Shown here: in pieces, positions 25,421 through 42,950 of the stretch
How the letters are laid out: the number at the start of each line of letters is the position of its first letter
How positions within the stretch are numbered: the first letter of the stretch is position 1
From: Chromatiales bacterium
GTDB taxonomy: Bacteria; Pseudomonadota; Gammaproteobacteria; JAJPIJ01
Direction of reading: 5' to 3'
DNA: 64,000 bases
Assembly: GCA_052388435.1 (NCBI GenBank)
Contig: JBQTIC010000054.1
Span: forward strand, 2,739-66,738
The notes under the pieces: model-generated
Databases searched by the model: none
Told to the model about the DNA's origin: nothing
Seen by the model: only the letters and a program-made list of their open reading frames with translations
Translations under genes and position numbers: made by a program

Positions 25421-25458
25421 GGGCTTGTACTGCCTAATGTTACTGAAACAGCGCCGCT

Positions 25459-26870: not shown

Positions 26871-27779
26871 GTGAACGAGCGGGCGCCCGACACCGCTCCT
26901 GCGGGAGCGACCTGGACCGATCGCCTGCAGACCTGGCCGCAATATCTGCTGCCCCAGCGCCTCCTCTCGCGCATCATCCATGCGGCGACACGCAGCCGGA
27001 CGTGGAAGGATCTGCTCATCCGCCGCTTCGCCCGGCACTACGGAGTCGACATGGATGAGGCCCTGGAGCCCGACCTCGGTCGCTACGCGCATTTCAACGA
27101 CTTCTTCACCCGCGCGCTGCGTCCCGGCGTCCGTGCCTTTCCCCAGTCAGGCGATGTCGTGGCAAGTCCGGTCGATGGCTATATTAGCCAGATCGGTTAC
27201 CTCCATGCAGACCTGCTAATCCAGGCCAAGGGCCGTCATTACACGCTTTCGGCGCTGCTCGGCGGGGAGCGCGCGCTGGCGGCACAGTTTCAGTCCGGCG
27301 CCTACGCCACGCTCTATCTGTCCCCGCGCGATTACCATCGCGTGCACATGCCGGTGGACGGAACGCTGCGAGAAATGATCTACGTCCCCGGCAAGCTGTT
27401 TGCCGTTAACCCCCGCACCACGCGCGTCATAAACAATCTGTTCGCGCGCAATGAGCGGCTGATCTGCCTGTTTGATTCCGCTGCGGGTCCACTGGCAGTA
27501 CTGCTGGTCGGCGCGATCTTCGTCAGCAGCATGGAGACCGTCTGGGAGGGCGTAATCGGGCCAGGCGGCCGACAGACATGCCGGCGATGGGATTACGGGG
27601 CATCGGCGCACGCATTCAGACGCGGGGCGGAGATCGCCCGCTTCAACATGGGCTCTACTGTCATCCTGCTGTTCGGCAGGGACCGGGTTCGCTGGGATGC
27701 CGTGTGGCCGCCCGGCATGGCGCTGCGCCTCGGCATGCCTCTGGGGAGGCTGCACAATCAGAGCGTACGACCAGGCTAG
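26871..27779 (+). CDS. psd: phosphatidylserine decarboxylase proenzyme
   Basis: Collinear with E. coli Psd: ...YHRVHMPVDGTLREMIYVPGKLF...RFNMGSTVILLF (LGST-type autocleavage site). GTG start at 26871. Confidence 0.9.
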   Translation: MNERAPDTAPAGATWTDRLQTWPQYLLPQRLLSRIIHAATRSRTWKDLLIRRFARHYGVDMDEALEPDLGRYAHFNDFFTRALRPGVRAFPQSGDVVASPVDGYISQIGYLHADLLIQAKGRHYTLSALLGGERALAAQFQSGAYATLYLSPRDYHRVHMPVDGTLREMIYVPGKLFAVNPRTTRVINNLFARNERLICLFDSAAGPLAVLLVGAIFVSSMETVWEGVIGPGGRQTCRRWDYGASAHAFRRGAEIARFNMGSTVILLFGRDRVRWDAVWPPGMALRLGMPLGRLHNQSVRPG

Positions 27780-29206
27780 CGCACTGCGCTGATGCAGACG
27801 GCCATCAACAGGCCCGGCATGATGCCCAGCAGCAATATCGCAAGCCCGTTAACGCTCAATGCCAGACGCGTGTCGGCACTCACTGCGAGTGCCGCCCCGC
27901 TTGCGGGCGGATCAAAGTACATCAGCTTGACCACCCGCAGGTAGTAGTACGCGCCGATGATGGAGAACAGGACCGCCACGGCGGCGAGCCACACGTGTCC
28001 GGCATTAATCACTTCCTTGAGCACGAACCACTTCGCCCAGAAACCGGCGAAGGGCGGGACGCCGGCGAGCGAGAACATCATGATGAGCATCACGAATGCG
28101 AACCAGGGACTGCGGCGGGTGAAACCCTTGAAGTCATCGAGACGGTCGGATTCCCTGCCCGCGTCACCGATCAGGATGATTACGCCGAAGGCGCCCAGGC
28201 TCATCAGCGCGTAGACGATGGCATAGAACATGGCTCCGGCATAGCCGCTCGGTGTCGCCGCTAGCAGGCCGAGGAGCAGGAAACCCATATGGTTGATGGT
28301 GGAATACGCCAGCATGCGCTTGATGTTTGACTGGGCAATGGCGACCACGTTGCCGATAATCATCGAGGCCACGGCGAGCGCAATCAACATGCGGTGCCAG
28401 TCCCCCGAAAGGTGCTGCAGGCCGTCGGCGAGCAGCCGCATTGCCATGGCAAAAGCGGCCACCTTCGACGCCGTGGCGATGAGAAGGGTCACTGCGGTGG
28501 GCGCGCCCTCGTAGACATCGGGCACCCACATGTGGAACGGCACTAGGCCCAGCTTGAAGGCCACGCCGACCACGATGAAGACGAGCGCAAACACCATCAG
28601 GAGGCGGTCGCTTCCGGCCGCAGTCGCTGCGTTCGCCATGTCCACGAGGTCGAGCGTGCCGGTCACGCCGTAGAGCATGGACATCCCGTAGAGCAGCATT
28701 CCCGAGGCGAGCGCGCCAAGGACGAAATATTTCATCGCCGCCTCGGAGGCCGCCGGCGAGTCCCGATGCATCGCCACCAGCGCGTAGAGCGAAAGCGACA
28801 GCAGCTCCAGCCCCAGGTAGATGGTCAGCAGGCTGCCGGCAGACACCAGCACCATGATGCCCAGCACCGCCATCAGCGCCAGCACGAAAAATTCCCCGCT
28901 CAGCAACCGTCGCAGGCGCAGGTAATCGCGCCCGTAAATCAGGCCGAAGATGACCATGGCGAGAACGAAGCTCTTAAGCACCACCGCCAGCGGGTCGCGC
29001 ACGAACATGCCGTGGAACGCCGTGGCGACACCCTTGGGACCCATTAGCGTGTCGGCGCTGAGCGCGGCGAGCAGGGTAAGCTGTGTCAGCCAGTAGGCCG
29101 CCCGGTGTTCGGGATCGCGGCTGTGGACATCAACGACAAGCACCAGGCAGATCATCGTCAGCACGAGGATCTCCGGCAGCGCCAGCTGGATAGATTCCGG
29201 CGTCAT
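27776..29206 (-). CDS. nuoN: NADH-quinone oxidoreductase subunit N
   Basis: 14-TM antiporter-like subunit, last gene of the nuo operon. Start ATG 29206 overlaps nuoM stop (ATGA). Its stop shares the tetranucleotide CTAG with the psd stop (convergent). Confidence 0.9.
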   Translation of the reverse strand: MTPESIQLALPEILVLTMICLVLVVDVHSRDPEHRAAYWLTQLTLLAALSADTLMGPKGVATAFHGMFVRDPLAVVLKSFVLAMVIFGLIYGRDYLRLRRLLSGEFFVLALMAVLGIMVLVSAGSLLTIYLGLELLSLSLYALVAMHRDSPAASEAAMKYFVLGALASGMLLYGMSMLYGVTGTLDLVDMANAATAAGSDRLLMVFALVFIVVGVAFKLGLVPFHMWVPDVYEGAPTAVTLLIATASKVAAFAMAMRLLADGLQHLSGDWHRMLIALAVASMIIGNVVAIAQSNIKRMLAYSTINHMGFLLLGLLAATPSGYAGAMFYAIVYALMSLGAFGVIILIGDAGRESDRLDDFKGFTRRSPWFAFVMLIMMFSLAGVPPFAGFWAKWFVLKEVINAGHVWLAAVAVLFSIIGAYYYLRVVKLMYFDPPASGAALAVSADTRLALSVNGLAILLLGIMPGLLMAVCISAVR

Positions 29207-30720
29207 GGCAGTTTGGACGCGGCGGCGTGTTGCACCAGGTTTTCGATACTCGCGCGCATGGTGTCGAGGAGCGGCGCGGGCCACACGCCAAAGACGAGCA
29301 CCGCAATGGCCAGTGTCAGCAAGACGAGGAACTCACGCCGGTCTATGTCCTGCAATGCGGCCACGCCGGGGTTGGCGACCGGGCCGAAGATGACGCGCTT
29401 GTACATCCACAGTGTGTAGGCCGCCCCGAGGACGAGGGTAGTGGCGGCCAGGAATGCCACCCAGAAGTTCGCCTTCACGCTCGCAAGGATGACCAGTAAC
29501 TCTCCGACGAAACCGGAGGTGGCGGGCAGGCCGGAGTTAGCCATCGCAAAGAGCATCATCAGCGCCGCAAAGCGCGGCATGGTATTGACCACGCCGCCAT
29601 AGTCGCGGATCTGCCGGCTGTGCAGGCGGTCATAGAGCACCCCCACGCAGAGGAACAGCGCGCCCGAGATGAACCCGTGGGAGACCATCTGCACCATGCC
29701 ACCGGCCACGCCCATCACGGCACCATCGTCCGTGCCGGTGTTCTGGATGATGCGGAAGATCGTGAAGAAGCCCAGCGTGACGAAGCCCATGTGCGAGATG
29801 GACGAATAGGCGATGAGCTTCTTCATGTCCTGCTGAACCAAGGACACGAAACCGATGTAGACCACCGCAATGAGCGACAGCACAATCATCAGGCCGTCGA
29901 AGTAGCGGGCGGCATCGGGGAGGATCGGCAGGCTGAAGCGCAGGAAGCCGTAGCCGCCCATCTTGAGCAGGATGGCGGCGAGGATGACGGAACCGCCCGT
30001 CGGCGCCTCGACGTGGGCATCCGGCAACCAGGTGTGCACCGGCCACATCGGCACCTTCACCGCGAACGCAAGCAGGAAGGCAATGAACAGCCACTTCTGC
30101 GCCGTCAGGGTGATCGGCAGCGCCTGCATGTCGGCGATTGCAAAGCTGTTGGCCTTGAAGTAGAGGTACAGCAGTCCGACGAGCATGAAGACGGAACCGA
30201 GGAAGGTGTACAGGAAGAATTTCACCGCCGCATACACGCGCTCAGGCCCGCCCCAGATGCCGATGATGAGAAACATCGGAACCAGCATCGCCTCCCAGAA
30301 GACATAGAAAAGGATGGCATCGAGCGAACAGAACACGCCCAGCATCAGTCCCTCGAGGATGAGGAAGGCGGCGAAATACTGGTAGGCCCTGTCCTTGATG
30401 ACCTCCCAGCCGGCCAGCACCACCAGCACCGTTGTCAGAGTGGTGAGCAGAATGAGCGGCAAAGCAATGCCATCGATGCCGAGGTGATAGTTGATGCCGA
30501 AAACCGGGATCCAGGGCCGCACCTCCACGAACTGCATTGCCGCGGTGGAGGTATTGAAGCGCGTGTATAAAAGTATGGAGAGCCCCAGTGTGGCGAGGCT
30601 GATGAGCAGGGAGTCGATCTTCACCGCCCGGTCGGTGACGCGGCCGCCGGCAAAGAGCACCCACAGCCCGCCGAGGGTCGGCACCCAGATAACGAGACTC
30701 AACAATGGCAGATCAGGCAT
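29203..30720 (-). CDS. nuoM: NADH-quinone oxidoreductase subunit M
   Basis: 505-aa antiporter-like subunit (Mrp/NuoM family), in operon order. Confidence 0.9.
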   Translation of the reverse strand: MPDLPLLSLVIWVPTLGGLWVLFAGGRVTDRAVKIDSLLISLATLGLSILLYTRFNTSTAAMQFVEVRPWIPVFGINYHLGIDGIALPLILLTTLTTVLVVLAGWEVIKDRAYQYFAAFLILEGLMLGVFCSLDAILFYVFWEAMLVPMFLIIGIWGGPERVYAAVKFFLYTFLGSVFMLVGLLYLYFKANSFAIADMQALPITLTAQKWLFIAFLLAFAVKVPMWPVHTWLPDAHVEAPTGGSVILAAILLKMGGYGFLRFSLPILPDAARYFDGLMIVLSLIAVVYIGFVSLVQQDMKKLIAYSSISHMGFVTLGFFTIFRIIQNTGTDDGAVMGVAGGMVQMVSHGFISGALFLCVGVLYDRLHSRQIRDYGGVVNTMPRFAALMMLFAMANSGLPATSGFVGELLVILASVKANFWVAFLAATTLVLGAAYTLWMYKRVIFGPVANPGVAALQDIDRREFLVLLTLAIAVLVFGVWPAPLLDTMRASIENLVQHAAASKLP

Positions 30721-30847
30721 TCTTGTTATTCGTTGTTCCTGGCTTGGTGATCGGTGACTCGTGATTCGTTGCTCGTGATCCCGTAATCGGTATATGCAAC
30801 TGCGGCCGCTTCACTGGGAACAAGTCACGAATTGCCAGTGACCGGAT
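30721..30847 (-). promoter_or_regulatory. unusual 127-nt nuoL-nuoM intra-operon spacer carrying a conserved element shared with the nuoF-nuoG spacer
   Basis: mRNA-sense GCAGTTGC-N13-GGGATCACGAGCAACGAA-TCACGAG... The 18-mer (plus-strand TTCGTTGCTCGTGATCCC, 30765-30782) is 16/18 identical to 37735-37752. nuoL and nuoM are normally adjacent or overlapping. Confidence 0.3.
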
Positions 30848-32809
30848 TCAGTGTCCGAACCCGTGTACGAAATAGCCCAGGAGCAGCAGAACTCCGATGA
30901 TCATGGCGAAGGCGTAGTGATACAGATACCCCGACTGGATCCGGCGCAGCCTGCCGGCGACCCAACCAACCAGGCGCGCCGTGCCGTTCACGCCCGCGCC
31001 GTCGATGACCAGCTCGTCGCCGACCCGCCATAGCGCCCGCCCCGCCCCGCGTGCCCCTCCTCCAAATACGATCTCGTTGAATTCGTCGAACCCATACTTG
31101 CGCTCCAGCACAAGATGCAGCCAGCGCAAGGCCGGGGCGAGCGCTGCAGGCAGCGACGGCCACCACCAGTAGAGCAGCCATGCGACCAGCATGCCGCTCA
31201 GCCCAAATATCGTGGGTGCGGCAGTGAGCCCGTGCTCAAGCGCCTCCCTCCAGCCGTGGAATTCCTCGGCCAGGTGCTGCGCGGCCTCATGGCTGGCGAA
31301 CACATGGATGGCGCTGCCAAAGAAGCCTTCCTTTAGTATCGCCTCGGCCGCGATGGCGCCGATGGCAACCGAGGGGATTGCGAGCAGGATCAGTGGAACG
31401 GTCACCACTGCCGGTGACTCGTGCAGGTGCTCCTTCGCAGGGAGGGCGATGCGCTCGCGGCCGTGGAAAACCAGGAAGAACATGCGGAAGCTGTACACCG
31501 CAGTGATGAAGACACCGGAAAGGACCACGTAGTACGCCCACGTCGCCGCCGGCAGGTTGGAATGATGGACCGCTTCGATGATGGCGTCCTTGGAGTAAAA
31601 GCCCGCCATGCCGGGAAAGCCTATCAGCGCCAGCGACCCGACCAGCGCGGTGATCCAGGTGATCGGCATGTAGCGGCGCAGCCCGCCCATATGGCGTATG
31701 TCCTGCTCATGGTGCAGAGCAATGATCACTGAGCCGGCGGCGAGGAAAAGCAGCGCCTTGAAGAAGGCATGTGTCATAAGGTGGAAGATCGCCACACTGT
31801 ATGCCGAGGCGCCGAGAGCCACCGTCATGTAACCGAGCTGCGAGAGGGTCGAATAAGCGATCACCCGCTTGATGTCGTTCTGCACCAATGCTATCAAGCC
31901 CGTAAGGAATGCGGTGACGGCGCCGATGATGAGCACCACGTTGAGCGCCGTGTCGGAGTACTCAAACAGCGGCGACATGCGCGCGACCATGAAAATGCCC
32001 GCGGTCACCATCGTCGCGGCGTGGATCAGCGCCGAGATGGGCGTGGGACCTTCCATCGAATCCGGCAGCCATACATGCAGCGGCATCTGCGCCGACTTAC
32101 CCATCGCGCCGAGGAACAGCAGCAGGCAGATGACCGTCAGCAACTGCCAGGCCTGTCCGTCCCAAACCGTGATCGTCCTGACGGCCAGCTCCGGAGCCTT
32201 GCCGAACACGGTCGCGTAATCGAGCGACCCGGCGTACATGAGCACCAGGGCAATGCCGAGCAGAAAGCCGAAATCGCCGACCCGGTTAACGATGAAGGCC
32301 TTCAGGTTCGCGTAGACCGCAGAGGGTCGTGTGTACCAGAAACCGATGAGGAGGTAGGACATCAGTCCCACCGCCTCCCAGCCGAAGAAGAGCTGCAGGA
32401 AGTTATTGCTCATGACCAGCATAAGCATGCTGAAGGTGAACAGCGCGATGTAGCTGAAGAAGCGCTGGTAACCAGGATCGCCATGCATGTAGCCGATGGT
32501 ATAGATGTGTACCATCAGCGACACAAAGCTCACCACCGCCATCATCGTCACGGTGAGCTTGTCCAGCAGAAATCCGATCTCGAACTTCACGCCGCCGACC
32601 ACCCCCCAGTCATAAACATGCGCGTTGTGGGTCGGTAGGCCATCGAGGGCGATCCGCTTGAACAGCCAGAACGAGACGAGAGTCGACACCGCCACTCCGA
32701 TGATGGTCACCCAGTGAGCGCCGGCCCGGCCGATCTGTCTGCCGCAAAGACCTGCCACCATGGAACCGATGAGCGGGGCAAGCACTACGATGAGCGCGAA
32801 TGTAGTCAT
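30848..32809 (-). CDS. nuoL: NADH-quinone oxidoreductase subunit L
   Basis: 653-aa antiporter-like subunit with C-terminal long amphipathic helix region. Confidence 0.9.
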   Translation of the reverse strand: MTTFALIVVLAPLIGSMVAGLCGRQIGRAGAHWVTIIGVAVSTLVSFWLFKRIALDGLPTHNAHVYDWGVVGGVKFEIGFLLDKLTVTMMAVVSFVSLMVHIYTIGYMHGDPGYQRFFSYIALFTFSMLMLVMSNNFLQLFFGWEAVGLMSYLLIGFWYTRPSAVYANLKAFIVNRVGDFGFLLGIALVLMYAGSLDYATVFGKAPELAVRTITVWDGQAWQLLTVICLLLFLGAMGKSAQMPLHVWLPDSMEGPTPISALIHAATMVTAGIFMVARMSPLFEYSDTALNVVLIIGAVTAFLTGLIALVQNDIKRVIAYSTLSQLGYMTVALGASAYSVAIFHLMTHAFFKALLFLAAGSVIIALHHEQDIRHMGGLRRYMPITWITALVGSLALIGFPGMAGFYSKDAIIEAVHHSNLPAATWAYYVVLSGVFITAVYSFRMFFLVFHGRERIALPAKEHLHESPAVVTVPLILLAIPSVAIGAIAAEAILKEGFFGSAIHVFASHEAAQHLAEEFHGWREALEHGLTAAPTIFGLSGMLVAWLLYWWWPSLPAALAPALRWLHLVLERKYGFDEFNEIVFGGGARGAGRALWRVGDELVIDGAGVNGTARLVGWVAGRLRRIQSGYLYHYAFAMIIGVLLLLGYFVHGFGH

Positions 32810-32818
32810 CGCTTCCGT

Positions 32819-33124
32819 CTAGCCCTTCATGGCGTCGAGGTCGTCGACGTTGATGGTGCGCCGGCTGCGAAACAGCACCACCAGGATGGCGAGCCCGATG
32901 GCTGACTCCGCGGCCGCGACGGTCAGAATAAAGAACACGAACACCTGGCCGGTGATGTCGCCGCGGAAGTGCGAGAAGGCGACGAAGTTCATGTTTACCG
33001 CCAGCAACATCAACTCGATGCACAGCAACAGCACAATGACGTTCTTGCGGTTGATGAAAATGCCGGCGACACTGAGACAGAACAGCACCGCGCCGAGCAA
33101 CAGATAATGCGACAGCGGGATCAC
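32819..33124 (-). CDS. nuoK: NADH-quinone oxidoreductase subunit K
   Basis: 101 aa, 3 [17 protein letters not shown]... Confidence 0.9.
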
Positions 33125-33720
33125 GGACGCTTCTCCGCCGGCATCTTCACCAGCCGCACACGCTCGCTGCGACGCACACTCACCTGATCCTCGGGCTTCG
33201 GGGTCTTCCCCTGCCGGATGCCGCGCATAGTCAGCGCGATGGCCGCGATGATGGCGACCAGCAACACCACCGCGGCGATCTCGAACGGATAGAGGTAGTC
33301 GGTGTATAGCGCGCGCCCCAGCTCGGCGGTGTTGCTGTAACCGGCAGCCCTGCGGGGCGGCGCCGCGAACTGCTCCAGGCCGAAATGGTGCGGCCCGACG
33401 ACCAGACTCATCGCCACCACAGTGAGCAGCGCCACCGCCGCACCGACCGGCAGGTAGCGGGCGAAGCCTTCGCGCAACTGCGTGATGTTGACGTCCAGCA
33501 TCATCACCACAAACAGGAACAGCACCATCACCGCGCCCACGTAAACGAGAACGAGCGCGATGGCGAGGAACTCGGCCTCGAGAAGCAACCAGAGGCCGCT
33601 GCTCGCCACGAACGCCAGCACCAGGAACAGCACGGCGTGAACGGGGTTGCGCACGGTGATCACCATGGTGCCGGCGAACAACAGCAGCGCCGCGAGCATC
33701 CAGAAGATCGCCCCCTCCAT
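33121..33720 (-). CDS. nuoJ: NADH-quinone oxidoreductase subunit J
   Basis: Start set at second ATG ([15 protein letters not shown]...), which has GGTGAGG RBS at 9-nt spacing. [13 protein letters not shown]...[17 protein letters not shown] matches NuoJ. Confidence 0.85.
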
Positions 33721-33736
33721 CTCTCTCATCCTCACC

Positions 33737-34225
33737 TTACCGGAACATCGCGTCGCGGGACCGGTCGGCAGCGATCTGTGCCTCGAATATCTCGCCAACC
33801 TTGAGCAGCTTTTCCTTGGTCATCACAAGATCGCCGCGCTGCTCGCCGTGATACTCGAAGTAACGGGTCTCGACAATCGCGTCGACGGGGCAGGATTCCT
33901 CGCAGAAGCCGCAGAAGATGCACTTGGTAAGATCGATGTCGTAGCGGGTGGTGCGCCGCGTCCCGTCGGCGCGCTGGTCGGATTCAATCGTGATGGCGAC
34001 CGCCGGGCACACCGCCTCGCAGAGCTGGCAGGCGATGCAGCGCTCCTCGCCGTTCGGATAGCGGCGCAGCGCATGCAGGCCGCGGAAGCGTGGCGACAGC
34101 GGTGTTTTCTCCTCCGGATACAGCACCGTCACCTTGCGATCGAACAGGTACCGGCCGGTGAGCCGCATCCCCTTCACCAGCTCCCAGAGCAGCAGACTCC
34201 TGAAGTAATTGGCGATCGCGCGCAT
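33737..34225 (-). CDS. nuoI: NADH-quinone oxidoreductase subunit I
   Basis: Two 4Fe-4S ferredoxin motifs: [12 protein letters not shown] and [12 protein letters not shown]. Confidence 0.9.
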
Positions 34226-34231
34226 GGCGCC

Positions 34232-35335
34232 TCAGACTGCGTCGAACCAGGGGGGGATCCGCCACATGACCAGTATCGCGACGACCACCAGCCATACGAT
34301 GGTGATCGGGATAAACACCTTCCAGCCCAAACGCATGATTTGATCATAACGGTACCTCGGGAAGGTGGCGCGGAACCACAGAAACAGCAGAAGAAAGAAC
34401 GCTATCTTTGCGATCAGCCAGTGCAGTCCCGGGGCGAAGAAGGAGCCGATCCAGGGGACATTGTAGAGATCCTCCGACGAACGCCCGAGCAGCTCGGGTA
34501 CACCCTGCACCGGCGACAGCCAGCCGCCGAGGAACATGACCGACGCCAGGGTCGCGATAAGGATCATGTTGGCGTACTCAGCGAGGAAGAACACCGCGAA
34601 CGCCATGCCGGAGTACTCGACGTGAAAGCCGGCGACCAGCTCCGATTCGCCTTCCGCCACGTCGAATGGCGCGCGGTTGGTCTCCGCCACCCCGGAAATG
34701 AAGTAGACGAGAAACATCGGCAGGAGCGGCAGCCAGAACCAGTTGAGGATGCTGCCCTCCTGGTGGAGGACGATGGCGCGCAGATTGAGGCTGCCGGCGG
34801 CGATGAGCACGCTCACCAGCGCAAAGCCCATGGCAATCTCGTACGCCACCATCTGAGCCGCTGACCGCAGCGCACCCAGGAAGGCATACTTCGAGTTCGA
34901 TGACCAGCCGGCGATGATGACACCATAGACGCCCATGGACGTGAGCGCCAGGATGTAGAGCAGGCCCGCGTTGATGTCAGCAATGGTCTTGGTCGCATCG
35001 AACGGGATGACCGCCCAGGCTGCAAGCGCCGGGCCTATTGCGAGGATTGGAGCGGCGATGAACAGAAACCTGTTGGCGCCGGCCGGGATGATGATCTCCT
35101 TGACCAGCAGTTTGAAGGCATCCGCGATGGGCTGCAGCCAGCCCTTCGGTCCGACACGGTTCGGGCCGAAGCGCACCTGCATGTAGCCAATCACCTTGCG
35201 CTCCGCAAAGGTGAGATAGGCCACCGACAGCATCAGCGGCACAAGCAGCGCAACAATCTGTATCAGAATGCTGGTCACCGACCACAGCGGCACCGGCATC
35301 CAGAAGAACATCTGTGAGCGCAGCCAATCCAGCAT
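34232..35335 (-). CDS. nuoH: NADH-quinone oxidoreductase subunit H
   Basis: Start ATG 35335 ([11 protein letters not shown]...) overlaps nuoG stop (ATGA). ...[23 protein letters not shown] is the NuoH/ND1 signature. Confidence 0.9.
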
Positions 35336-35337
35336 AT

Positions 35338-37710
35338 TCAGGCCCGCTCGACCTTGATGGATCCGAATGCCGGACCGAATCTGTGCAGCGGTCCGGCGCC
35401 GTGGATGAGCACACAAGCATCGGGCAGGGTGGGATCGATACGCAGCGGCAGCAGATCGCTTGTTTCACCCTGTTCGACCCGGACCAGCTTTTCACCGATG
35501 AGGCCGTGGCTGCTTGCGACGCCAGGACTGACGCGCACATAGCCGTCGGCGACCTCACCGGTATCCTGCAATGCCCTCGCATGCCGGACCAGCGGGTCGC
35601 CGGAATAAGCGGGCACAACCGTCACGCGTTCCAGACCGGTCGCCGGCACCTTGTAGAGCAGCGCGCCGTGCGCGACATCGCCGCTGTTATCCGGCCTTGC
35701 ATCTCCCACGGCGGCGCGCAGTTCCTCGCGCACCTCGGCGGAGGTCATGTAATCGAACCCGGCGACGCCGAAGGTGTTGCCCAGGACGCGCAACACCTTC
35801 CACGCCGGCCGTGCCTCGCCGGGCGGCTTCACCGCCGCATCGAAGCTCTGCCACCGGCCTTCCGCGTTCACATACGTGCCGGCGGTCTCCGCAAACAGTG
35901 CGATCGGCAGCATCGCGTGCGCATACTCCTCCATCGCCGCGCTGCGGTAGGCTGTCAACGCCACCACCAGCCCCGCACGTTGCATGGCCAGCAGGGCGGT
36001 GTGACTATCCCAGCAGTCGAGCTCGGGCTCCACGCCAAGCAGCAAATAGGCGCGCAGCTGCTTCCTGAGCATGGCGGCGGCGTCGAGACCGGGCGCGGCG
36101 AGTCGCGTCATGGCCGGCCCGCGATGCGGAAGCACGCCCGCCAACCACGCGCCGACGCCATTGGCGCCTTCGCAGAGGTAGCCGACAGACTTCCCGCTCA
36201 GGCGCGCAATGGTCTGCGCGAGCGTGCGCAGGATGGACAGGTTGGGGTGAGCGATGGCCAGGTTGCCAAGCAGGATCGTTGCGCGCGCAGTAGACTTCAT
36301 GCGCGTGGCGATCGCGCGATGGACAGGCTCGACCCTGACATCGTGCAGGCGGTCGGCCACGTCTGTTACGCGGCCTTCCTCGGCGAGCACTCGCGCCACG
36401 CCAGCCAGGGCCGCGATCATGGCGCTCGGCCGGCAAATGATCCTGTCGCTGACATGCCAGTTGAAGTCAAAGTCCACGGGATTGATGACCATCAGCTTGG
36501 CGCCACGCATCGAGGCCTTGCGCAGTCGGTGGTTGGCCATGGGCTGCTCCTTGCGCACGTTGGAGCCGACCAGCAGCACGGCGTCCGCCCTTTCGAGCTC
36601 GGCGATTCCCTGGGCCAGCCACGGGAAGATTGGTGCGCGATCCTGGTCACGGAAATCCCCTTGCCGCAGACGGTGATCGATGTGAGGCACGCCGAGGGCG
36701 CGCAAGAGCTTCTGAAAAAGGTACAGTTCCTCCACGGTCGCCGATGGCGAGGCGAGCGCGCCGATCTGCTCGACGCCGTGGTCGGTGACGGTCACTTTGA
36801 CGCGCGCGGCGGTGACCTTCAGTGCGGTCTCCCAATCCACCTCGCGCCACCGCCCGTGCTCCTTGATCATCGGCACTCGTAGCCGGCCCGCGCTGTTGAG
36901 ACCCTCGTAGCTGTAACGGTCGCGGTCCGAGAGCCAGACTTCGTTAACGGCCTCGTTCTCGCGCGGGACAACGCGCTTGACGATCTGACCCTTGACGTGC
37001 AGCTCGATGTTGGAGCCAACGCAGTCGTGGGGCGCGATGCCCGGCTTGGCGCGAAGTTCCCAGGCCCGCGCGGTGTAGCGATAAGGCTTGGAGGTCAGCG
37101 CGCCGACGGGGCAGAGGTCGATGACGTTGCCCGACAATTCCGAGGTGACCGCGCGCTCTACGTAGGTGCCGATCTCCATCTGCTCGCCGCGGCCGGTCGC
37201 GCCGAGTTCCCGCAGACCCGCGATCTCCTCGCCGAAGCGCACGCAGCGCGTGCAATGAATGCAGCGTGTCATGTCGGTCTGGATGAGCGGCCCAATGTCT
37301 TTGTCCTTCACCACCCGCTTGCGCTCCGTGTAGCGCGATACGTCAGAGCCGTAGCCCATGGCCAGGTCCTGCAGTTCGCACTCGCCGCCCTGGTCGCAAA
37401 TGGGGCAGTCGAGCGGGTGATTGATGAGCAGGAACTCCATCGTCGCCTGTTGTGCCTCGCGCGCCACCGGGGAGCGGGTGTATACCTTCATGCCTTCCAT
37501 CACCGGCGTCGCGCAGGCGGGCAGCGGCTTCGGCACCTTCTCCACCTGCACAAGACACATACGGCAGTTGGCGGCAATGGACAGCTTCTTGTGATAGCAG
37601 AAGCGTGGAATATAGATGCCAGCGGCATCCGTGATCTCCATGATCATGGCGCCCTTGCGCGCCTTGAGGGGCACGCCGTCCACTTCGATGTTGACCAGGT
37701 GTTCGTTCAT
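35338..37710 (-). CDS. nuoG: NADH-quinone oxidoreductase subunit G
   Basis: 790 aa. N-terminal 2Fe-2S and 4Fe-4S cysteine clusters ([32 protein letters not shown]), molybdopterin-oxidoreductase-like C-terminus. Confidence 0.9.
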
Positions 37711-37803
37711 GCGCTCGTGAATCGTTATTTGTAGTTCGTTACCCGTGATCCCTGGCTGGCAACTGCTTTCGAATCACCATCACGCATTACCGGTCACGTC
37801 TAT
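37711..37803 (-). promoter_or_regulatory. 93-nt nuoF-nuoG spacer carrying the second copy of the conserved intra-operon element
   Basis: mRNA-sense GCAGTTGC-N5-GGGATCACGGGTAACGAA...GATTCACGAG. Plus-strand 18-mer TTCGTTACCCGTGATCCC at 37735-37752 and GCAACTGC at 37758-37765 mirror the nuoL-nuoM spacer. Confidence 0.3.
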
Positions 37804-39108
37804 TCATGCCGCCTTGGCAGCCTCGCTGTCGACGACGCTGCGGCCGTGCTCGATGTAGTACTCGAACTCGTGGCGGAAGTGCCTGATGAAACTCTGCACG
37901 GGCATGGCGGCCGCATCACCCAGGGCACAAATGGTGCGCCCCCCGATCTTGGAGGCCACGTCGTCGAGCTTCGCGAGATCCTCCCTGGCGCCCTCGCCCT
38001 CGACGATGCGCGTGAGCATGCGGTAGAGCCAGCCCGTGCCTTCGCGGCAAGGCGTGCACTGGCCGCAGGACTCGGAGAAGTAGAAGCGCGAGATCCGCTG
38101 CAGCAACCGCACCATGTCGGTCGTCTCGTCCATTACGATGACCGCGCCGGAGCCGAGCAGTGAACCGGCCCTGGCCATGGAGTCGTAGTCCATGTCGAGT
38201 TGCATCATGATCTCGCCCGGCAGCACCGGCACGGAGGAACCGCCCGGGATGACGGCTTTGAGAGCGCGCCCCGCGCGCACGCCACCGGCCAGTTCGAGCA
38301 GGGAGCGGAACGGCGTTCCCATCGGGATCTCGAAGTTGCCCGGTCTGGCCACGTGGCCGCTCACTGAAAAGATCTTGGTACCGCCCGCTGTCGGCTTGCC
38401 CAGCCCGGCAAACCACTTCGCTCCTTTGCGCATGATCGTCGGCACCGAGGCCAGCGATTCGGTGTTGTTGATGGTGGTCGGCTTGCCGTAGAGACCGAAA
38501 CTCGCCGGGAACGGTGGCTTGAAGCGCGGCAGTCCCTTCTTGCCCTCAAGCGACTCGAGCAGAGCTGTCTCCTCGCCGCAGATATAGGCACCGGCGCCGA
38601 GCGTCACGTACAGGTCAAAGTCCACGCCCGAGCCAAAGATATCCCTGCCGAGCAGGCCGAGCCCGTAGGCCTCCTTGAGCGCCTGCGTGAAACGCTGGTA
38701 GGGCTCGTCCATGAATTCTCCGCGCAGGTAGTTGTAACCAACCGTCGCGCCCATCGCGTAGCCGCCGATCGCCATGCCCTCGATGAGCGCGTGCGGATTA
38801 AAGCGCAGGATGTCGCGGTCCTTGCAGGTGCCCGGCTCACTCTCATCGGAATTGCAGACGAGATACTTCTGCACTGGCGCCGCGCGTGGCATGAAGCTCC
38901 ACTTCACTCCGGTCGCGAAGCCGGCACCTCCGCGGCCGCGCAGCCCGGACGCCTTCACCTCCTCTACCACCTTCTCCGGCGGGGTTTCCCCGGCAAGGAT
39001 CCTCTTCCAGGCCTTGTAGCCCCCGATTCTGAGGTAGTTGTCCAATGTCCAGGGCTGCTCAAACTGCAGCGTCTCGTAGCAGCAGGCATTCAGAAGCAGA
39101 TCCGTCAT
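37804..39108 (-). CDS. nuoF: NADH-quinone oxidoreductase subunit F
   Basis: Start ATG 39108 (MTDLLLNAC...) overlaps nuoE stop (ATGA). FMN/NADH site [19 protein letters not shown], 4Fe-4[16 protein letters not shown]-track extension to 39336 overlaps nuoE. Confidence 0.9.
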
Positions 39109-39605
39109 TCCATTGAGTCCAGGATCTCGTCGACCTTGGCGGTGGTCAGATGCTCGTAGTACTTGTGATCGACCTGCATCATCGGTGCCCCGCAGCACGC
39201 GGCGAGGCACTCCTCCTCCTGCTTTAGATAGAAGCGACAGTCGGATGTGCTCTCGCCGATCCTGATGCCGAGCTTGCGCTCGATGTGGCGCACGATCTCG
39301 TCGGCGCCACAGAGCCAGCAGGAAACATTGGTGCACACCGAGATGCTGTGGCGGCCGACGGGTCTGGTCTCGAACATGGAATAGAAGCTGGCCACCTCAT
39401 AGACAGCGATCGGCGGCAGTTCGAGATACTCGGCCACCGCGTCCATCAGTTCGACGGTGAGATAGCCACCGTTCTCGTGCTGAACCTCTTGCAGCGCGGC
39501 CAGCACCGCGGAGCGCTTGTGCTCCGGCGGATACTGCGTCAGCCACTCGTCGATGACGTGCCGCGCGTGCTCCGAAAGCTTGCTGACTTTCGCTGTCGTT
39601 TCCAT
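39105..39605 (-). CDS. nuoE: NADH-quinone oxidoreductase subunit E
   Basis: 166 aa thioredoxin-like 2Fe-2S subunit: [10 protein letters not shown]...CLAACCGAP. Confidence 0.9.
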
Positions 39606-39739
39606 CGTTACAGAGAGCTATCGAGCCGGTATGTCGCGTCCGGGCAAGGCGCGAGGCCGTGAGCGGCCCGGAGCATGCACGGCAGTATGTGAGGACCGCG
39701 AAGGAGCGAGTAAAACAGCATCGACGCGAAAGACCAGGC

Positions 39740-40993
39740 TCATCGATCGATTTCGCCGAAGACGATGTCCTGCGTGCCTATAATCGCCACCACGTCGGCG
39801 AGCATGTGCCCCTTGGCCATCTCATTGATCGATGCCAGATGCGGAAACCCCGCAGCGCGGATCTTGACGCGGTACGGCTTGTTGGCGCCGTCCGAGATCA
39901 GGTAGATGCCGAACTCGCCTTTCGGGTGTTCAACGGCCGCATATACTTCACCCTCCGGCACGCAATAGCCCTCAGTGAAGAGTTTGAAGTGATGGATGAG
40001 GGATTCCATGTCGCCCTTCATCTCCTCGCGCCGCGGCGGGACCAGCTTGTGATCGTCGATGATGACCGGCCCGGGATTCCTGCGCAGCCAGTCGATACAC
40101 TGTCTGATGATGCTGTTGGACTGCCGCATCTCCTCGATGCGAACGAGGTAGCGATCGTAGCAGTCGCCGTTGACGCCGACCGGGATATCGAAGCCAAGCT
40201 CGTCGTAGACTTCGTAGGGCTGCTTCTTGCGCAGGTCCCACTCCACGCCGGAGCCGCGCAGCATCGGCCCGGTGAAGCCGAGCGCCAGCGCGCGCTCGGG
40301 AGACACCACGCCTATCCCCACCGTGCGCTGCTTCCAGATGCGGTTGTCGGTGAGCAGCGTCTCGTACTCGTCCACACACTTCGGGAAGCGCGCGGTGAAG
40401 TCTTCGATGAAGTCGAGCAGTGAACCGGTGCGGTTTGCGTTGAGCTTCTTGATCTGCCCCTTGCTGCGAAAGCGTGAGGGCTGGTATTGCGGCATCTGCC
40501 CTGGCAGATCCCGGTAAACACCGCCCGGCCGGTAGTAGGTCGCGTGCATGCGCGTGCCCGAGACGGCCTCGTAGCAGTCCATCAGATCCTCGCGCTCGCG
40601 GAACGCATACAGGAAGACGGTCATCGCGCCGATGTCCAGCCCATGCGCGCCGAGCCACAGCAGGTGATTGAGGATGCGCGTCACCTCGTCGAACATCACG
40701 CGGATGTACTGCGCGCGTATCGGCGGCGTGATGCCGAGCAGCCGCTCGATGGCCATCACGTAGGCGTGCTCGTTGCACATCATCGAGACGTAATCGAGTC
40801 GATCCATGTAGCCGATGCTCTGGTTGAACGGCTTGCTCTCGGCGAGCTTCTCGGTCGCCCGGTGCAGGAGACCGATGTGCGGGTCGGCGCGTTCGATGAC
40901 CTCCCCGTCCATCTCCAGCACCAGACGCAGCACGCCGTGAGCCGCGGGGTGCTGCGGTCCGAAGTTGATCGTCATGTTGCGGATCTCAGGCAC
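39740..40993 (-). CDS. nuoD: NADH-quinone oxidoreductase subunit D
   Basis: 417 aa. [31 protein letters not shown]... is the classic NuoD/49-kDa N-terminus. Confidence 0.9.
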
Positions 40994-41678
40994 GCGTCCC
41001 GCCCTTCTGACGCGCAGCCTCGAAACGGTCGTCCTGGCGGATGACCTTTGGCACCAGCACGCGGTTCTCGATGGTCACTGGCTGGTAGATCACGCGCTTC
41101 TTCTCAGGGTCGTAACGCACCTCGACGTTGCCTTCCAGCGGAAAGTCCTTGCGGAACGGATGGCCAATGAAGCCATAGTCAGTCAGCAATCGGCGCAGGT
41201 CCGGATGACCCTCGAAAAGGATACCGAAGAGATCAAATGCCTCGCGCTCGTACCAGTTGGCCGAGTTCCAGATATCCACCACGCTGTCGATGGTCGGCGC
41301 ATCGGCATCGACAAAGACGCGCAGTCGCAGGCGCTGGTTATGCGTGTACGACAGAAGGTGGTAGACCACCGCAAAGCGCGGGCCTCGCCACGATGGAACG
41401 TTGCCGGCTCCAATTCTCACGCCGCGGCTGAAGCCCTCCACGGTTGCATCCTCCGTCTCCCAGTCGCTGCACCCATAATCCGCATAGTCGACGCCGCACA
41501 GATCAGACAACTGCTCGAAGGAGAACAGCGGGTCGTCACGCAGCACGCGGCAGACCGCCAACAGATGTTCGCGCGGCAGTTCGGCGCTCACCTGCCCGAC
41601 CGCCACTGCCAAGCGCGTCAAGCGGCCAGCAAATGCCTGCTCCAGCCTGGCCTTGAGATCTTCGACAGACAAAGACAT
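40986..41678 (-). CDS. nuoC: NADH-quinone oxidoreductase subunit C
   Basis: 30-kDa subunit ([26 protein letters not shown]). Start tentatively at ATG 41678 ([13 protein letters not shown]); the ORF track extends to 41816 with a non-conserved basic leader that would overlap nuoB. 3' end overlaps nuoD start by 8 nt. Confidence 0.8.
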
Positions 41679-41692
41679 GAGCCGGGAGTGAG

Positions 41693-42169
41693 TCAGCGGG
41701 CGATGGTGTTCGTCCGACGGATCTTGTTCTGCAGTTGCAGGATCCCAAAAAGCAGCGCCTCGGCGGTAGGCGGGCAGCCAGGCACGTACACGTCCACCGG
41801 TACGATGCGGTCGCAACCGCGCACCACCGAATAGGAATAGTGATAATAACCGCCGCCATTGGCGCAGGAACCCATGGAAATCACCCAGCGCGGCTCCGGC
41901 ATCTGGTCATAAACCTTGCGCAGCGCTGGCGCCATCTTGTTGACCAGAGTGCCGGCGACGATCATGACGTCGGACTGACGCGGGCTCGCGCGGAACACGA
42001 CACCGAAGCGATCGAGGTCGTAGCGCGCGGCGCCGGCATGCATCATCTCCACCGCGCAGCACGCCAGCCCGAAGGTCATGGGCCAGAGTGATCCGGTGCG
42101 CGCCCAATTTACCAGCTTGTCGACCGTGGTCGTGACCACGCCCTGGTCGAGGACGCCCTCGATGCTCAT
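41693..42169 (-). CDS. nuoB: NADH-quinone oxidoreductase subunit B
   Basis: 158 aa. N2 cluster motifs LACCAVEMM...[10 protein letters not shown]...GCPP. Confidence 0.9.
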
Positions 42170-42217
42170 GCCGTCACCTCCACCGATTGTCGCCCGCTGT
42201 GCGGACCCCTTCCACCG

Positions 42218-42574
42218 CTACTCCCAATCCAACGCCCCCTTTTTCCACTCGTACACGAATCCTATGACAAGGATAGCGAGGAAAACCATCATCGCGATGA
42301 AGCCTGCGAAGCCGATCTCTCGCAGAGCCACTGCCCACGGAAAAAGGAAAGCGATCTCGAGGTCGAACACGATGAAAAGAATGGCCACCAGGTAGTACCG
42401 GACGTCAAACTTCATTCGCGCGTCCTCGAAGGCCTCGAAGCCGCATTCGTAGGGAGCGAGCTTCTCGTCGTAGGGCTCGCGCCTGCCGAGTAGAAAGCCA
42501 ATGGCGATGGCAACCGTGCCTACCAGGATGCCAACGACGATGAACACCAGAACAGGCAGATACTGCGCCACCAT
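42218..42574 (-). CDS. nuoA: NADH-quinone oxidoreductase subunit A
   Basis: 118 aa, 3 TM, ...[32 protein letters not shown] is the NuoA/ND3 signature. Confidence 0.9.
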
Positions 42575-42713
42575 ACAGCCGTGCGTGCGGCACCTGGCCG
42601 CAACAGCTCCCTTCCGTCAAAAGACGGTCACATTGCAGTGCAATATAGTTTACTGCAATTCGGAGGTCGTCGGGACAGCAATTTTCGGATGATCATGTCG
42701 TGCAAGGCCGCCC

Positions 42714-42745
42714 GCTCAGCCGCTCAGCCGCTCAGCCGCTCAGCC
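42714..42745. repeat. perfect tandem repeat (GCTCAGCC)x4 plus a degenerate fifth unit, in the nuoA 5' leader
   Basis: cccGCTCAGCCGCTCAGCCGCTCAGCCGCTCAGCCaagc lies between tRNA-Leu and nuoA. The unit is 8 nt, not a multiple of 3, and lies outside any credible ORF. Confidence 0.8.
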
Positions 42746-42823
42746 AAGCATCAGGCCTCAGCTCTTCTGACTTAACGACGGCGGCGAGGGCGCCAGGGAC
42801 GAGGAGAAAATACTCGATAGCTT

Positions 42824-42908
42824 TGGTGCCGACGGAGAGACTCGAACTCTCACGGGTTGCCCCGCCACCCCCTCAAGATGGTGTGTCTACCAATTCCACC
42901 ACGTCGGC
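42824..42908 (-). tRNA. tRNA-Leu (anticodon GAG), class II tRNA with long variable arm (leuU-like position after secG)
   Basis: Reverse complement GCCGACG-TG-GTG-GAATTGGTAGA-CAC-A-CCATC-TT-GAG-GG-GGTGG-CGGGGCAACCCGTGA-GAGTT-CGAGTCT-CTCCG... acceptor pairs with CGTCGGC, then ACCA. 85 nt. secG-tRNA-Leu(GAG) synteny matches E. coli secG-leuU. Confidence 0.85.
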
Positions 42909-42950
42909 ACGGGTATGCATCGCTACGCCCGTTACAAACACTAGCAAAAA

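Follow-up and report, generated by a model that had tools for sequence, protein, structure and literature searches.

A degenerate heptamer-repeat element duplicated in two intercistronic spacers of a Chromatiales nuo operon

The nuoF-nuoG (F-G) and nuoL-nuoM (L-M) spacers in the respiratory complex I operon of an uncultured Chromatiales bacterium constitute, with high confidence, a duplicated heptamer-repeat element. Its anatomy, periodicity, duplication and conservation in relatives are demonstrated. Most likely, it is a post-transcriptional cis element, acting in segmental mRNA stability or in SD-poor translation initiation, with a functionless repeat being nearly as likely.

The nuo operon is located on the minus strand of a 64-kb stretch of DNA, hereafter called the window, from a MAG of this gammaproteobacterium. 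The bounds of the nuo genes were determined by tblastn with the proteins of a relative (Table 1). The initial annotation had reported two long nuo spacers, of 127 and 93 nt, to which a third, nuoD-nuoE, has to be added; this one contains neither the shared motifs nor 7-nt periodicity. The L-M spacer is not decayed coding sequence, since the C terminus of NuoL is conserved.

Table 1. Genes, spacers and motif copies at the nuoF-nuoG and nuoL-nuoM junctions (window coordinates).
Feature	Position	Strand	Remarks
nuoD-nuoE spacer	39606-39739		third long nuo spacer, 134 nt
nuoF	37804..39108	-	tblastn bounds; upstream of F-G element
nuoF-nuoG spacer	37711..37803	-	93 nt; degenerate array, ~13 heptamers
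F-G 5' module CGTGACCGGTAATGCGTGATGGTGAT	37773..37798	-	
GCAGTTGC, F-G copy	37759-37766	-	common to L-M spacer
F-G 3' module	37711..37752	-	18-mer GGGATCACGGGTAACGAA, then ACGAACT ACAAATA ACGATTC ACGAGCG
18-mer, F-G copy GGGATCACGGGTAACGAA	37735-37752	-	
GATTCACGAG (GA(A/T)TCACGAG copy, F-G)	37714-37723	-	
nuoG	35338..37710	-	downstream of F-G element
nuoL	30848..32809	-	upstream of L-M element
nuoL-nuoM spacer	30721..30847	-	127 nt; whole spacer is a degenerate array, ~18 heptamers
L-M 5' module CCGGTCACTGGCAATTCGTGAC	30824..30845	-	GTCAC/GTGAC-type units; starts 2 nt past nuoL stop
GCAGTTGC, L-M copy	30796-30803	-	apex of predicted imperfect hairpin
L-M 3' module	30721..30782	-	18-mer GGGATCACGAGCAACGAA, then second TCACGAG (30758-30764)
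18-mer, L-M copy GGGATCACGAGCAACGAA	30765-30782	-	
GAATCACGAG (GA(A/T)TCACGAG copy, L-M)	30758-30767	-	
nuoM	29203..30720	-	tblastn bounds; downstream of L-M element

The 18-mer GGGATCACG(A/G)G(C/T)AACGAA, GCAGTTGC and GA(A/T)TCACGAG are all found in mRNA orientation in each of the two spacers and are absent from the rest of the 64 kb, which bears out the duplicated element proposed in the initial annotation. The two copies of the 18-mer, GGGATCACGAGCAACGAA and GGGATCACGGGTAACGAA, are indeed identical at 16 of the 18 positions, and the window contains no further match, even with three mismatches. Two details of the earlier description hold in part. The shared element, estimated at ~50 nt, is real but larger, as the similarity covers both spacers completely, with a 5' module directly after the stop codons, and GA(A/T)TCACGAG is located next to the start codon in the case of nuoG, whereas the L-M copy is found 38-47 nt upstream of the nuoM ATG. 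In both spacers, the 5' part adjoins the upstream stop codon and contains GTGA-type units (CGTGACCGGTAA, GGTGAT); the L-M 5' module CCGGTCACTGGCAATTCGTGAC is related to CGTGACCGGTAA of the F-G spacer and of the nearest relative, L001. The 3' part is A-rich and G-poor, with TCACGAG, ACGAA and AACAAGA units up to the next start codon. It ends in the L-M spacer with TCACC units and an A-rich run, AACAACGAATAACAAGA, that reaches the nuoM ATG, and in the F-G spacer TCACGA occupies positions -10 to -5 of the nuoG ATG. The 40 nt before the nuoM ATG consist of 45% A and 20% G, and, of all nuo genes, nuoG and nuoM have the most A-rich leaders (38% and 45% A, respectively). No good SD sequence was found ahead of either gene.

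Heptad stacking revealed that both spacers are degenerate arrays of 13-18 heptamers with a consensus of approximately ACSRRTN (A1, 30/43; C2, 25/43; A4, 23/43; T6, 27/43). The z-scores at lags of 7, 14 and 21 were 4.5, 5.0 and 3.8 for the L-M spacer and 3.4, 2.6 and 1.8 for the F-G spacer. When all 63-nt segments of the 64 kb were ranked for 7-nt periodicity, the L-M spacer came first (z 6.6) and the F-G spacer third (z 4.7). In L001, heptad periodicity reaches a z-score of 6.9, and its L-M spacer ranks first in 1.05 Mb of relatives' loci. The two spacers of the window are also reciprocal best local matches when the whole window is searched on both strands. Their alignment score of 28 exceeds the next best in the window (24-25) by a small margin and was reached in 1 of 2000 dinucleotide shuffles. 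The 7-nt periodicity is an independent property, which adds much more weight than the alignment score.

The element was found in three lineages only, i.e., that of the window, L001 (NuoG 78% identical) and L159. Conservation at the same positions in close relatives, by which the initial proposal could be judged, was observed: L001 contains TCACGAG/ACGAA arrays in both the F-G and the L-M spacer, and L159 has ATCACGAATAAC within a heptad-periodic L-M spacer. Aligned over 39 nt, the L-M spacers of the window and L001 share 74% identity (score 34), compared with a score of 24 for cross-junction pairs and a background score for the two F-G spacers. Background scores (11-20) were also obtained for the nuoA-B, nuoD-E and post-nuoN spacers, and four-fold degenerate sites of the window and L001 are near saturation (51% identical vs. 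37% expected). Across junctions, all 12 positions of CGTGACCGGTAA in the window F-G spacer agree with the beginning of the L-M spacer of L001, and lineage-specific variants are common to the copies of a genome, GGGATCACG and GCAGTTGC in the window and GGAGTCACG in L001. TCACGA is found at a fixed -10 position of nuoG in the window, L002, L150 and L156, and, among ~70 genes in four relatives, nuoG and nuoM are the only ones that it precedes within 45 nt of the start codon; L002 and L156 retain just one or two TCAC units. In most relatives, the L-M gap measures 6-41 nt, and the element is thus dispensable in principle. As this gap is short in the more distant relatives, the window spacers are lineage-specific expansions, for which a neutral or selfish origin has to be considered alongside a regulatory one.

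For the window, only weak hairpins are predicted (L-M, z -1.55; F-G, z +0.18). In L001, the L-M spacer is predicted to form a strong hairpin (-30.6 kcal/mol, z -4.3), which CGUGAC/GUCACG closes and an unpaired A-rich leader follows, and the F-G spacer is unstructured in the folding prediction. No stable hairpin consistent across the copies in the window and L001 was found. According to prediction, the initiation regions of nuoG and nuoM are no more accessible than those of other nuo genes, and no Rfam family matches the spacers.

The arrays could be functionless or selfish, i.e., a degenerate minisatellite or a low-copy REP/STRR/MITE-like family in two permissive gaps, which arrived there or expanded by slippage and of which the copies are kept alike by gene conversion or common descent. 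The hairpin and the A-richness would then be by-products. This is a serious, if rather doubtful, possibility. A tandem layout of 7-nt units is a typical product of replication slippage, and the mostly short L-M gaps of relatives point to insertions or expansions. Similarity can be greater between non-orthologous than between orthologous copies, as the 5' module of the window F-G spacer matches that of the L001 L-M spacer, whereas the two F-G spacers score at background; such a pattern is characteristic of repeat families or of gene conversion. Unrelated repeats are present in nuo gaps of other lineages, such as the nuoJ-nuoK heptads of L032, the REP of Escherichia coli nuoL-nuoM and a 15-nt tandem repeat in the F-G spacer of L051, and the genome of the window contains at least one real MITE. 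However, motif-cluster and nhmmer searches of the 64-kb window and 22 kb of L001 (86 kb) revealed no extra copy, and in each of the two genomes both copies belong to one operon and are oriented in mRNA sense. The motifs were kept whilst synonymous sites became nearly saturated and neighboring spacers were randomized, and TCACGA is held before nuoG in four lineages. Neither terminal inverted repeats nor target-site duplications are visible.

An improbable alternative is that the periodic ACGA/UCAC units form an mRNA platform for a trans-acting factor co-regulating both junctions, either an oligomeric RNA-binding protein that contacts one short motif per subunit or an sRNA pairing with UCACGAG at the nuoG and nuoM leaders. 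A short motif at fixed 7-nt spacing in G-poor, single-stranded-looking RNA that adjoins two start codons, its specificity for the nuoG and nuoM leaders, and the variants common to the copies within a genome, which fit co-evolution with a partner, all agree with such a platform. Precedents are HutP, which recognizes UAG triplets with a spacing of 7 nt, and TRAP, which recognizes GAG/UAG repeats. PPR proteins are, to our knowledge, not a bacterial system. As an analogy in mode of action only, chloroplast PPR10 is reported to bind one sequence that polycistronic mRNAs contain in both the atpI-atpH and the psaJ-rpl33 intercistronic region, where its sites define processed ends (PMC3326301). In contrast to a single 25-nt footprint, the nuo sites are periodic arrays, and no binding protein is predicted for them. 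Neither a candidate factor nor a complementary sRNA was found, the flanking genes being metabolic or kinases. The degeneracy of the units, the varying array length, the one or two TCAC units left in L002 and L156 and the lack of an Rfam match also argue against a platform. An internal promoter or transcription-factor operator, as suggested in the initial annotation, is not supported and very unlikely. The inverted GTGAY/RTCAC half-sites do resemble sites of dimeric regulators and, on inspection, TTGCCA in the F-G spacer matches five of six positions of the -35 consensus, but a promoter scan found no sigma-70-like site on either strand of either spacer, and inspection revealed no properly spaced -10 element and no sigma-54 site. 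Furthermore, a 7-bp phase does not put sites on one helix face, and the elements are strand-specific. Chance similarity of two A-rich leaders, for which the small excess of the alignment score over unrelated matches could be cited, is even less probable, as it is disfavored by the shuffles, the reciprocal best matches, the top ranking of both spacers for periodicity and the recurrence of the motifs at the same junctions in L001 and L159. Least credible of all is that the spacers encode small proteins. An open frame does run through the 18-mer in both, in a 20-codon ATG ORF (MRDGDSKAVASQGSRVTNYK) in F-G and a 33-codon GTG ORF in L-M with a common GSR(A/V)TN stretch, and, on inspection, of the two positions at which the 18-mers differ, one is synonymous when read in this frame (CGA/CGG). 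However, no reading frame can be maintained through a 7-nt repeat, the frame of GCAGTTGC differs between the copies (13 vs. 6 nt to the 18-mer), the alignment of the window and L001 L-M spacers requires 1-nt indels, the L001 F-G spacer lacks a start codon in the corresponding frame, and the putative starts lack an SD sequence. No conserved ORF was found in the spacers.

In type, the element is a repeat-element sequence like STRR or REP, and the closest known things are the cyanobacterial STRR heptamers of hupS-hupL and the REP of the E. coli nuoL-nuoM spacer. The 7-bp STRR units form a hairpin between hupS and hupL, for which a role in transcript stability or translational coupling was proposed (PMC2670836). 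Like the nuo element, they are tandem, hairpin-capable 7-nt units of unproven function in non-coding sequence that separates two cistrons of an operon for a multi-subunit redox enzyme (PMC2670836). However, their hosts are filamentous cyanobacteria rather than a gammaproteobacterium, and the nuo units are much more degenerate, have another consensus, fold weakly in the window according to prediction and were seen in two copies, both in nuo, within the DNA examined. In E. coli K-12, the nuoL-nuoM gap of 163 nt contains a REP-like palindrome, GTAGGTCGGATAAGCCGCCTTCGCGGTGCATCCGACA, which folds with a z-score of -4.5. REPs occur in hundreds of copies as compact, stable palindromes, and malE-malF is the paradigm of segmental mRNA stabilization by them. 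The E. coli repeat resembles the nuo element in being transcribed, intercistronic and located at the same junction, and it could likewise serve as an exonuclease barrier (PMC5927463). In contrast, the nuo element shows no sequence similarity to it, is a long heptad array with weak predicted folding in the window and has no extra copies in the 86 kb. In L032, an unrelated metagenomic lineage, a lineage-specific insertion of 7-nt units (GCAAGTN/ACTTGCN) is likewise present in a normally closed nuo junction, nuoJ-nuoK (6462-6634). It differs in unit sequence and junction and forms a near-perfect predicted hairpin of 136 nt (-80.6 kcal/mol, z -9.9), whereas the 3' half of the window arrays is largely non-palindromic.

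The explanation that we prefer, that of lineage-specific heptamer-repeat copies with a post-transcriptional cis role, is tentative and, as a whole, somewhat short of an even chance; the role itself, an effect on mRNA stability or translation that we infer, is put marginally lower. One degenerate heptanucleotide array (~ACSRRTN, 13-18 units) would have expanded in two originally short nuo gaps and would be transcribed within the nuo mRNA. Its 5' GTGA-type units may pair with downstream (A/G)UCACG units to form an imperfect stem-loop. This part might delimit or stabilize mRNA segments, as an exonuclease barrier or as a protective 5' structure after processing, and differential decay of operons is known to be shaped by protective RNA structures (PMC5927463). 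Translational coupling is ruled out at nuoG and nuoM because the gap is long. The A-rich 3' half would be their SD-poor translation initiation region and may permit independent ribosome loading at both genes. The 1:1 requirement for complex I subunits gives no obvious reason to express them differentially, which counts against the proposed role. The array would probably affect the stability of the nuo mRNA or the translation of the downstream genes.

Two junctions of the nuo operon, whose complex I genes lie on the minus strand, carry a duplicated, heptad-periodic element in mRNA sense. Related gammaproteobacterial MAGs share the gene order of the window, which runs from a Ser/Thr kinase-cNMP gene, pgi, SCO1 and psd, through nuoN back to nuoA, to tRNA-Leu, secG, tpiA, patatin, phaC and glnE. 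The bounds of the nuo genes were set by tblastn with the proteins of L001 (GCA_973522245.1), which, among 5.8 billion proteins, is the closest relative (78% identity in NuoG and 86% in NuoM). The relatives after L001 are 64-71% identical, and a metagenome scan with NuoG gave matches of at most 67% identity, none closer than L001. Thus, the lineage is thinly sampled. The initial annotation had described the nuoL-nuoM (L-M) and nuoF-nuoG (F-G) spacers as the long ones of the operon, and their lengths were recovered, but the nuoD-nuoE spacer is long too (see table).

Several other features were observed around the operon. Paralogous Ser/Thr protein kinase genes, both with a C-terminal cyclic-nucleotide-binding domain and ~72% identical in DNA, lie on both sides of pgi, an arrangement that is kept in the relatives' loci L156 and L159. 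Upstream of nuoA, a tRNA-Leu(GAG) was found by ARAGORN and by a permissive Rfam scan, and is absent from the matches of the full-window Rfam gathering scan. Between this tRNA gene and the nuoA promoter region lies a perfect 8-nt tandem repeat, which is absent from L001. About 60 nt upstream of nuoA, a perfect palindrome is followed by GTGAC..TGACGGA(A/G)GGGA; it is kept in L001 and partly in L002, another relative's locus, and could serve the nuo promoter as an operator or leader element.

Coordinates of the features in the window and in related nuo loci
Feature	Locus	Position	Strand	Remarks
nuoL-nuoM spacer	window	30721-30847		127 nt
18-mer in nuoL-nuoM spacer	window	30765-30782		
nuoF-nuoG spacer	window	37711-37803		93 nt
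18-mer in nuoF-nuoG spacer	window	37735-37752		
12 nt upstream of nuoG ATG	window	37711-37722	-	ATT start implied by 794-aa NuoG, inside GATTCACGAG motif
nuoD-nuoE spacer	window	39606-39739	-	134 nt, T/C-rich
AAGGATA repeat	window	6490-6506		x2.4, exact
Other GTGACCGGT copies	window	62884; 52982; 25641		
Ser/Thr protein kinase gene	window	19180-20508	-	
Ser/Thr protein kinase gene	window	24101-25543	-	
tRNA-Leu(GAG)	window	42824-42908	-	
8-nt tandem repeat	window	42712-42745		CCGCTCAG x4.2 (GGCTGAGC in nuo sense)
nuoA-upstream palindrome	window	42632-42644	-	ATTGCACTGCAAT
nuoA-upstream palindrome	L001	about 5075-5090		
nuoA-upstream palindrome	L002	about 5216		partly kept
158-nt repeat	window	25459-25616; 47642-47799	+	TIRs TAGGGAAGCTCTGA / TCAGAGGTTCCTTA
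F-G spacer with GC-rich hairpin	L002	9919-10000		CGTGGCG/CGCCAC
F-G spacer with GC-rich hairpin	L150	140-220		CGAGGCG/CGCCTG
F-G spacer with GC-rich hairpin	L156	2887-2968		
nuoJ-nuoK gap	L032 (also in L031)	6462-6634		173-nt insertion

Stacked in rows of seven, each of the L-M and F-G spacers appears over its whole length as a degenerate heptamer array with the consensus ACSRRTN; over 43 units, A is found at position 1 in 30, C at position 2 in 25, A at position 4 in 23 and T at position 6 in 27. Autocorrelation peaks at lags 7, 14 and 21 only, with z values of 4.5, 5.0 and 3.8 in L-M, 3.4, 2.6 and 1.8 in F-G, and 6.9, 5.2 and 3.4 in the L-M spacer of L001. When all 63-nt windows of the 64 kb were scanned for 7-nt periodicity, L-M ranked first (z 6.6) and F-G third (z 4.7), the second rank being taken by the AAGGATA repeat; the window has no further spot of strong 7-nt periodicity. 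The L-M spacer of L001 ranked first (z 7.9) in 1.05 Mb of relatives' nuo loci. TRF made no call on the arrays because their units are too degenerate. The 7-nt periodicity is absent from the L002 and L156 spacers, the Escherichia coli L-M spacer and the nuoD-nuoE spacer. The latter also lacks TCACGA and ACGAA motifs and cannot be aligned with its 87-nt counterpart in L001, whilst L002 and L156 have 13 nt at this junction.

As initially annotated, GCAGTTGC and GA(A/T)TCACGAG are found in mRNA sense in both spacers, and the two copies of an 18-mer ending in (A/G)G(C/T)AACGAA are identical at 16 of 18 positions; allowing up to three mismatches, the 18-mer has no other match in the window. However, the likeness reaches further than the ~50 nt first assigned to it. 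When both window spacers were aligned with their L001 orthologues, two common modules emerged. The 5' module, with GTGA-type units, begins right after the upstream stop codon and reads CCGGTCACTGGCAATTCGTGAC in L-M and CGTGACCGGTAAT..GGTGAT in F-G of the window, and CGTGACCGGTAACCGGTGG in L-M and GCGACGGGTAAGCGGTAAT in F-G of L001; the window F-G and L001 L-M modules are identical at 12 of 12 positions across CGTGACCGGTAA. The 3' module consists of TCACGAG and ACGAA units up to the ATG. The proposed position of the TCACGAG repeat next to the start codon holds for nuoG, where TCACGA occupies positions -10 to -5 relative to the ATG, but not for L-M, where the second TCACGAG lies ~40 nt from the ATG. 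In a Smith-Waterman search covering both strands of the window, each spacer was the best non-self match of the other, by the small margin of 28 vs. 24-25 for the next best; a score of 28 was attained by 1 of 2000 dinucleotide shuffles. As to other GTGACCGGT copies in the window, one is clearly coding (Walker A region) and two look like chance matches. The NCBI annotation gives NuoG 794 aa vs. 790 aa counted from the ATG, which would place the start at an ATT 12 nt upstream; the choice of start codon alters the reading of the last repeat unit.

The four-fold degenerate sites of the window genome and L001 are close to saturation (51% identical vs. 37% expected from composition), and the nuoA-nuoB, nuoD-nuoE and post-nuoN spacers give background scores of 11-20. 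The two L-M spacers score 34, with 74% identity over 39 nt, and the cross-junction comparisons score 24 in both cases. In L159, a third lineage (NuoM 80% identical), the L-M spacer of 84 nt is heptad-periodic, with GGTGAC after the stop codon and ATCACGAATAAC ahead of the start. In L002, L150 and L156, the F-G spacer ends in ATCACGA(T/A)CGAATG, and TCACGA therefore lies at -10 to -5 of the nuoG ATG, as in the window. Among ~70 genes of four relatives, TCACGA occurs within 45 nt upstream of the start codon before nuoG and nuoM only. The motif is thus kept at the same junctions in relatives, as the initial annotation had required, and comparison of these sequences indicates that the element is conserved at both junctions in the few relatives at hand, while neutral spacers have been randomised.

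Elsewhere, L-M gaps are short, i.e., 6-9 nt in L003, L160 and L164, 18 nt in a clade with ~60% identity and 41 nt in L161. Since the C-terminus of NuoL is conserved throughout the relatives compared, the spacer does not stem from a decayed NuoL C-terminus, and the long arrays are lineage-specific expansions of a short ancestral gap. In a NuoM tree, the window genome and L001 are sisters and L159 groups with L002 and L156; the motif is, therefore, older than the split between the window genome and L001 and was lost or replaced in places. Two further observations concern the F-G junction. In the clade with ~60% NuoG identity (L004-L024, L083), the F-G spacer of ~38 nt is strongly conserved (GCCGCGAAACCACCAACACGGTCGCAGTGGGTAAAAGATG), which suggests a constrained nuoG leader there too. 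In L002, L150 and L156, this spacer contains a GC-rich hairpin (GGCG...CGCC) with an apparent compensatory change between L002 and L150.

The best-supported reading, to which we give somewhat less than an even chance, is that of a cis-acting post-transcriptional element, in which a hairpin-prone 5' half would serve the stability or processing of an mRNA segment and an A-rich 3' half, poor in Shine-Dalgarno (SD) sequences, would provide nuoG and nuoM with their initiation region. The GTGA-type 5' units and UCAC-type 3' units are predicted to be able to pair, but not every copy forms a stable stem. RNA folding yielded a strong hairpin in the L-M spacer of L001 (z -4.3): CGUGAC pairs with GUCACG at its base, GUGGCUCCU/AGGAGUCAC form a stem further in, and the A-rich leader downstream of it is unpaired. 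The L-M spacer of the window gave a long imperfect and weak hairpin (z -1.55), and F-G of either the window (z +0.18) or L001 gave none. No other nuo leaders are as rich in A as those of nuoG and nuoM, whose last 40 nt ahead of the start codon contain 38% and 45% A, respectively, and 20-23% G; a good SD is missing from both. An unstructured leader was rejected, as the leaders of nuoG (0.47) and nuoM (0.41) do not exceed those of other nuo genes in partition-function accessibility.

Other mechanisms fared less well. An internal promoter, one of the candidates in the initial annotation, was not borne out: a promoter and terminator scan covering positions 27000-43000 found nothing in either spacer, including no sigma-70-type pair of -35 and -10 hexamers with 16-18 nt spacing. 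The covariance models of Rfam 15 gave no match in either spacer, at the gathering threshold or at E<=5. Inspection by eye showed sigma-54 and CsrA GGA motifs, an RfaH ops-like sequence (CGGTA..CGTG, with wrong spacing) and an IRE-like CAGUGA (without a stem) to be inconsistent across copies. The words GGAUCAC, GGUAAC and UAACAAG prompted a test for 16S rRNA mimicry or complementarity, but alignments with E. coli 16S rRNA in both orientations remained at shuffle level in 9 of 10 tests, and the single one above it was not common to the other copies. A conserved small ORF is contradicted by the 7-nt period, by 1-nt indels between the window and L001, and by a change of frame between the GCAGTTGC and 18-mer blocks.

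Nearly as likely as the cis-acting element, at about one chance in three, is a functionless, tolerated repeat. Motif-cluster searches and nhmmer with models of either module found no further copies in the 64-kb window or in 22 kb of L001. A scan of 185,579 species genomes, the source MAG not being among them, gave 62 exact matches to the 18-mer GGGATCACGRGYAACGAA (L084-L145) vs. ~70 expected by chance, none from a Chromatiales record or from the relatives. Approximately 17 of these come from Nitrospirales/Nitrospira MAGs and presumably represent one conserved locus of that order, unrelated to the nuo spacers. Classical STRRs form a dispersed, multi-copy family of heterocyst-forming and filamentous cyanobacteria, with unit sequences that differ from ACSRRTN. 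They are the closest known kind to the nuo spacer element, being 'usually made up of 7 bp repeats' and hairpin-capable; in several species they are found between hupS and hupL, where their function is not established and a role in transcript stability or translational coupling was proposed (PMC2670836). The nuo arrays share the head-to-tail 7-nt units (autocorrelation z reaching 5.0 in the window genome and 6.9 in L001) and the location in non-coding gaps between cistrons, and show the hairpin trait strongly in L-M of L001 and weakly or not at all in the window; however, their host is a Chromatiales bacterium MAG. Two copies are present in 64 kb. REP/BIME elements are compact imperfect palindromes with tens to hundreds of copies per genome and an associated RAYT transposase. 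In contrast, the window spacers are not compact, stable palindromes (z -1.55 and +0.18). A total of 86 kb yielded no extra copies.

Upon inspection, the nuo spacer ends have neither TIRs nor a target-site duplication, unlike MITEs. The window does contain a 158-nt repeat that looks like a MITE, with two 99% identical copies and TIRs of ~14 nt, one located between a kinase gene and SCO1 and the other flanked by phaC and glnE, which are convergent; it was not found in any of the relatives' loci compared. As it lacks the compact stable palindrome of REPs and the TIRs and target-site duplication of MITEs, and differs from classical STRRs in host and unit sequence, the element is filed as a variant of the heptamer-repeat or intercistronic-repeat kind, outside the named families. 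The L-M gap of E. coli K-12 (163 nt; its F-G gap is 52 nt) has a REP-like palindrome (z -4.5), and in L032, from an unrelated metagenomic lineage, the nuoJ and nuoK genes, which normally overlap, are separated by an insertion that looks like an STRR-like element, with a 136-nt near-perfect heptad-repeat hairpin (-80.6 kcal/mol, z -9.9) of GCAAGTN and ACTTGCN units. With the F-G and L-M junctions described here, nuo junctions of unrelated lineages have repeatedly and independently gained repeat or hairpin insertions, which suggests that they are either permissive or benefit from insulation.

It is improbable that the arrays act as a periodic platform to which a protein or sRNA binds. RNA-binding proteins such as HutP and TRAP bind one repeat unit per subunit. 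By analogy, though this more specific proposal is more doubtful still, the heptad-spaced ACGA/UCAC units could form an RNA platform for a ring-shaped or oligomeric RNA-binding protein (or an sRNA), which, bound at the nuoG and nuoM leaders together, would co-ordinate the synthesis of the NADH-dehydrogenase and antiporter-like membrane modules of complex I. With such a platform, the assembly of a respiratory complex would have a new point of control at the post-transcriptional level. Were the element no more than a decaying repeat, it would be nothing out of the ordinary for an uncultured genome. To our knowledge, heptanucleotide repeat arrays have so far been known mainly from cyanobacteria, as unexplained STRR elements. 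If the nuo element is functional, such arrays would have been recruited outside cyanobacteria as intercistronic expression elements of a 14-gene respiratory operon, and the two copies in one mRNA would offer a sequence-defined handle on what these arrays do.
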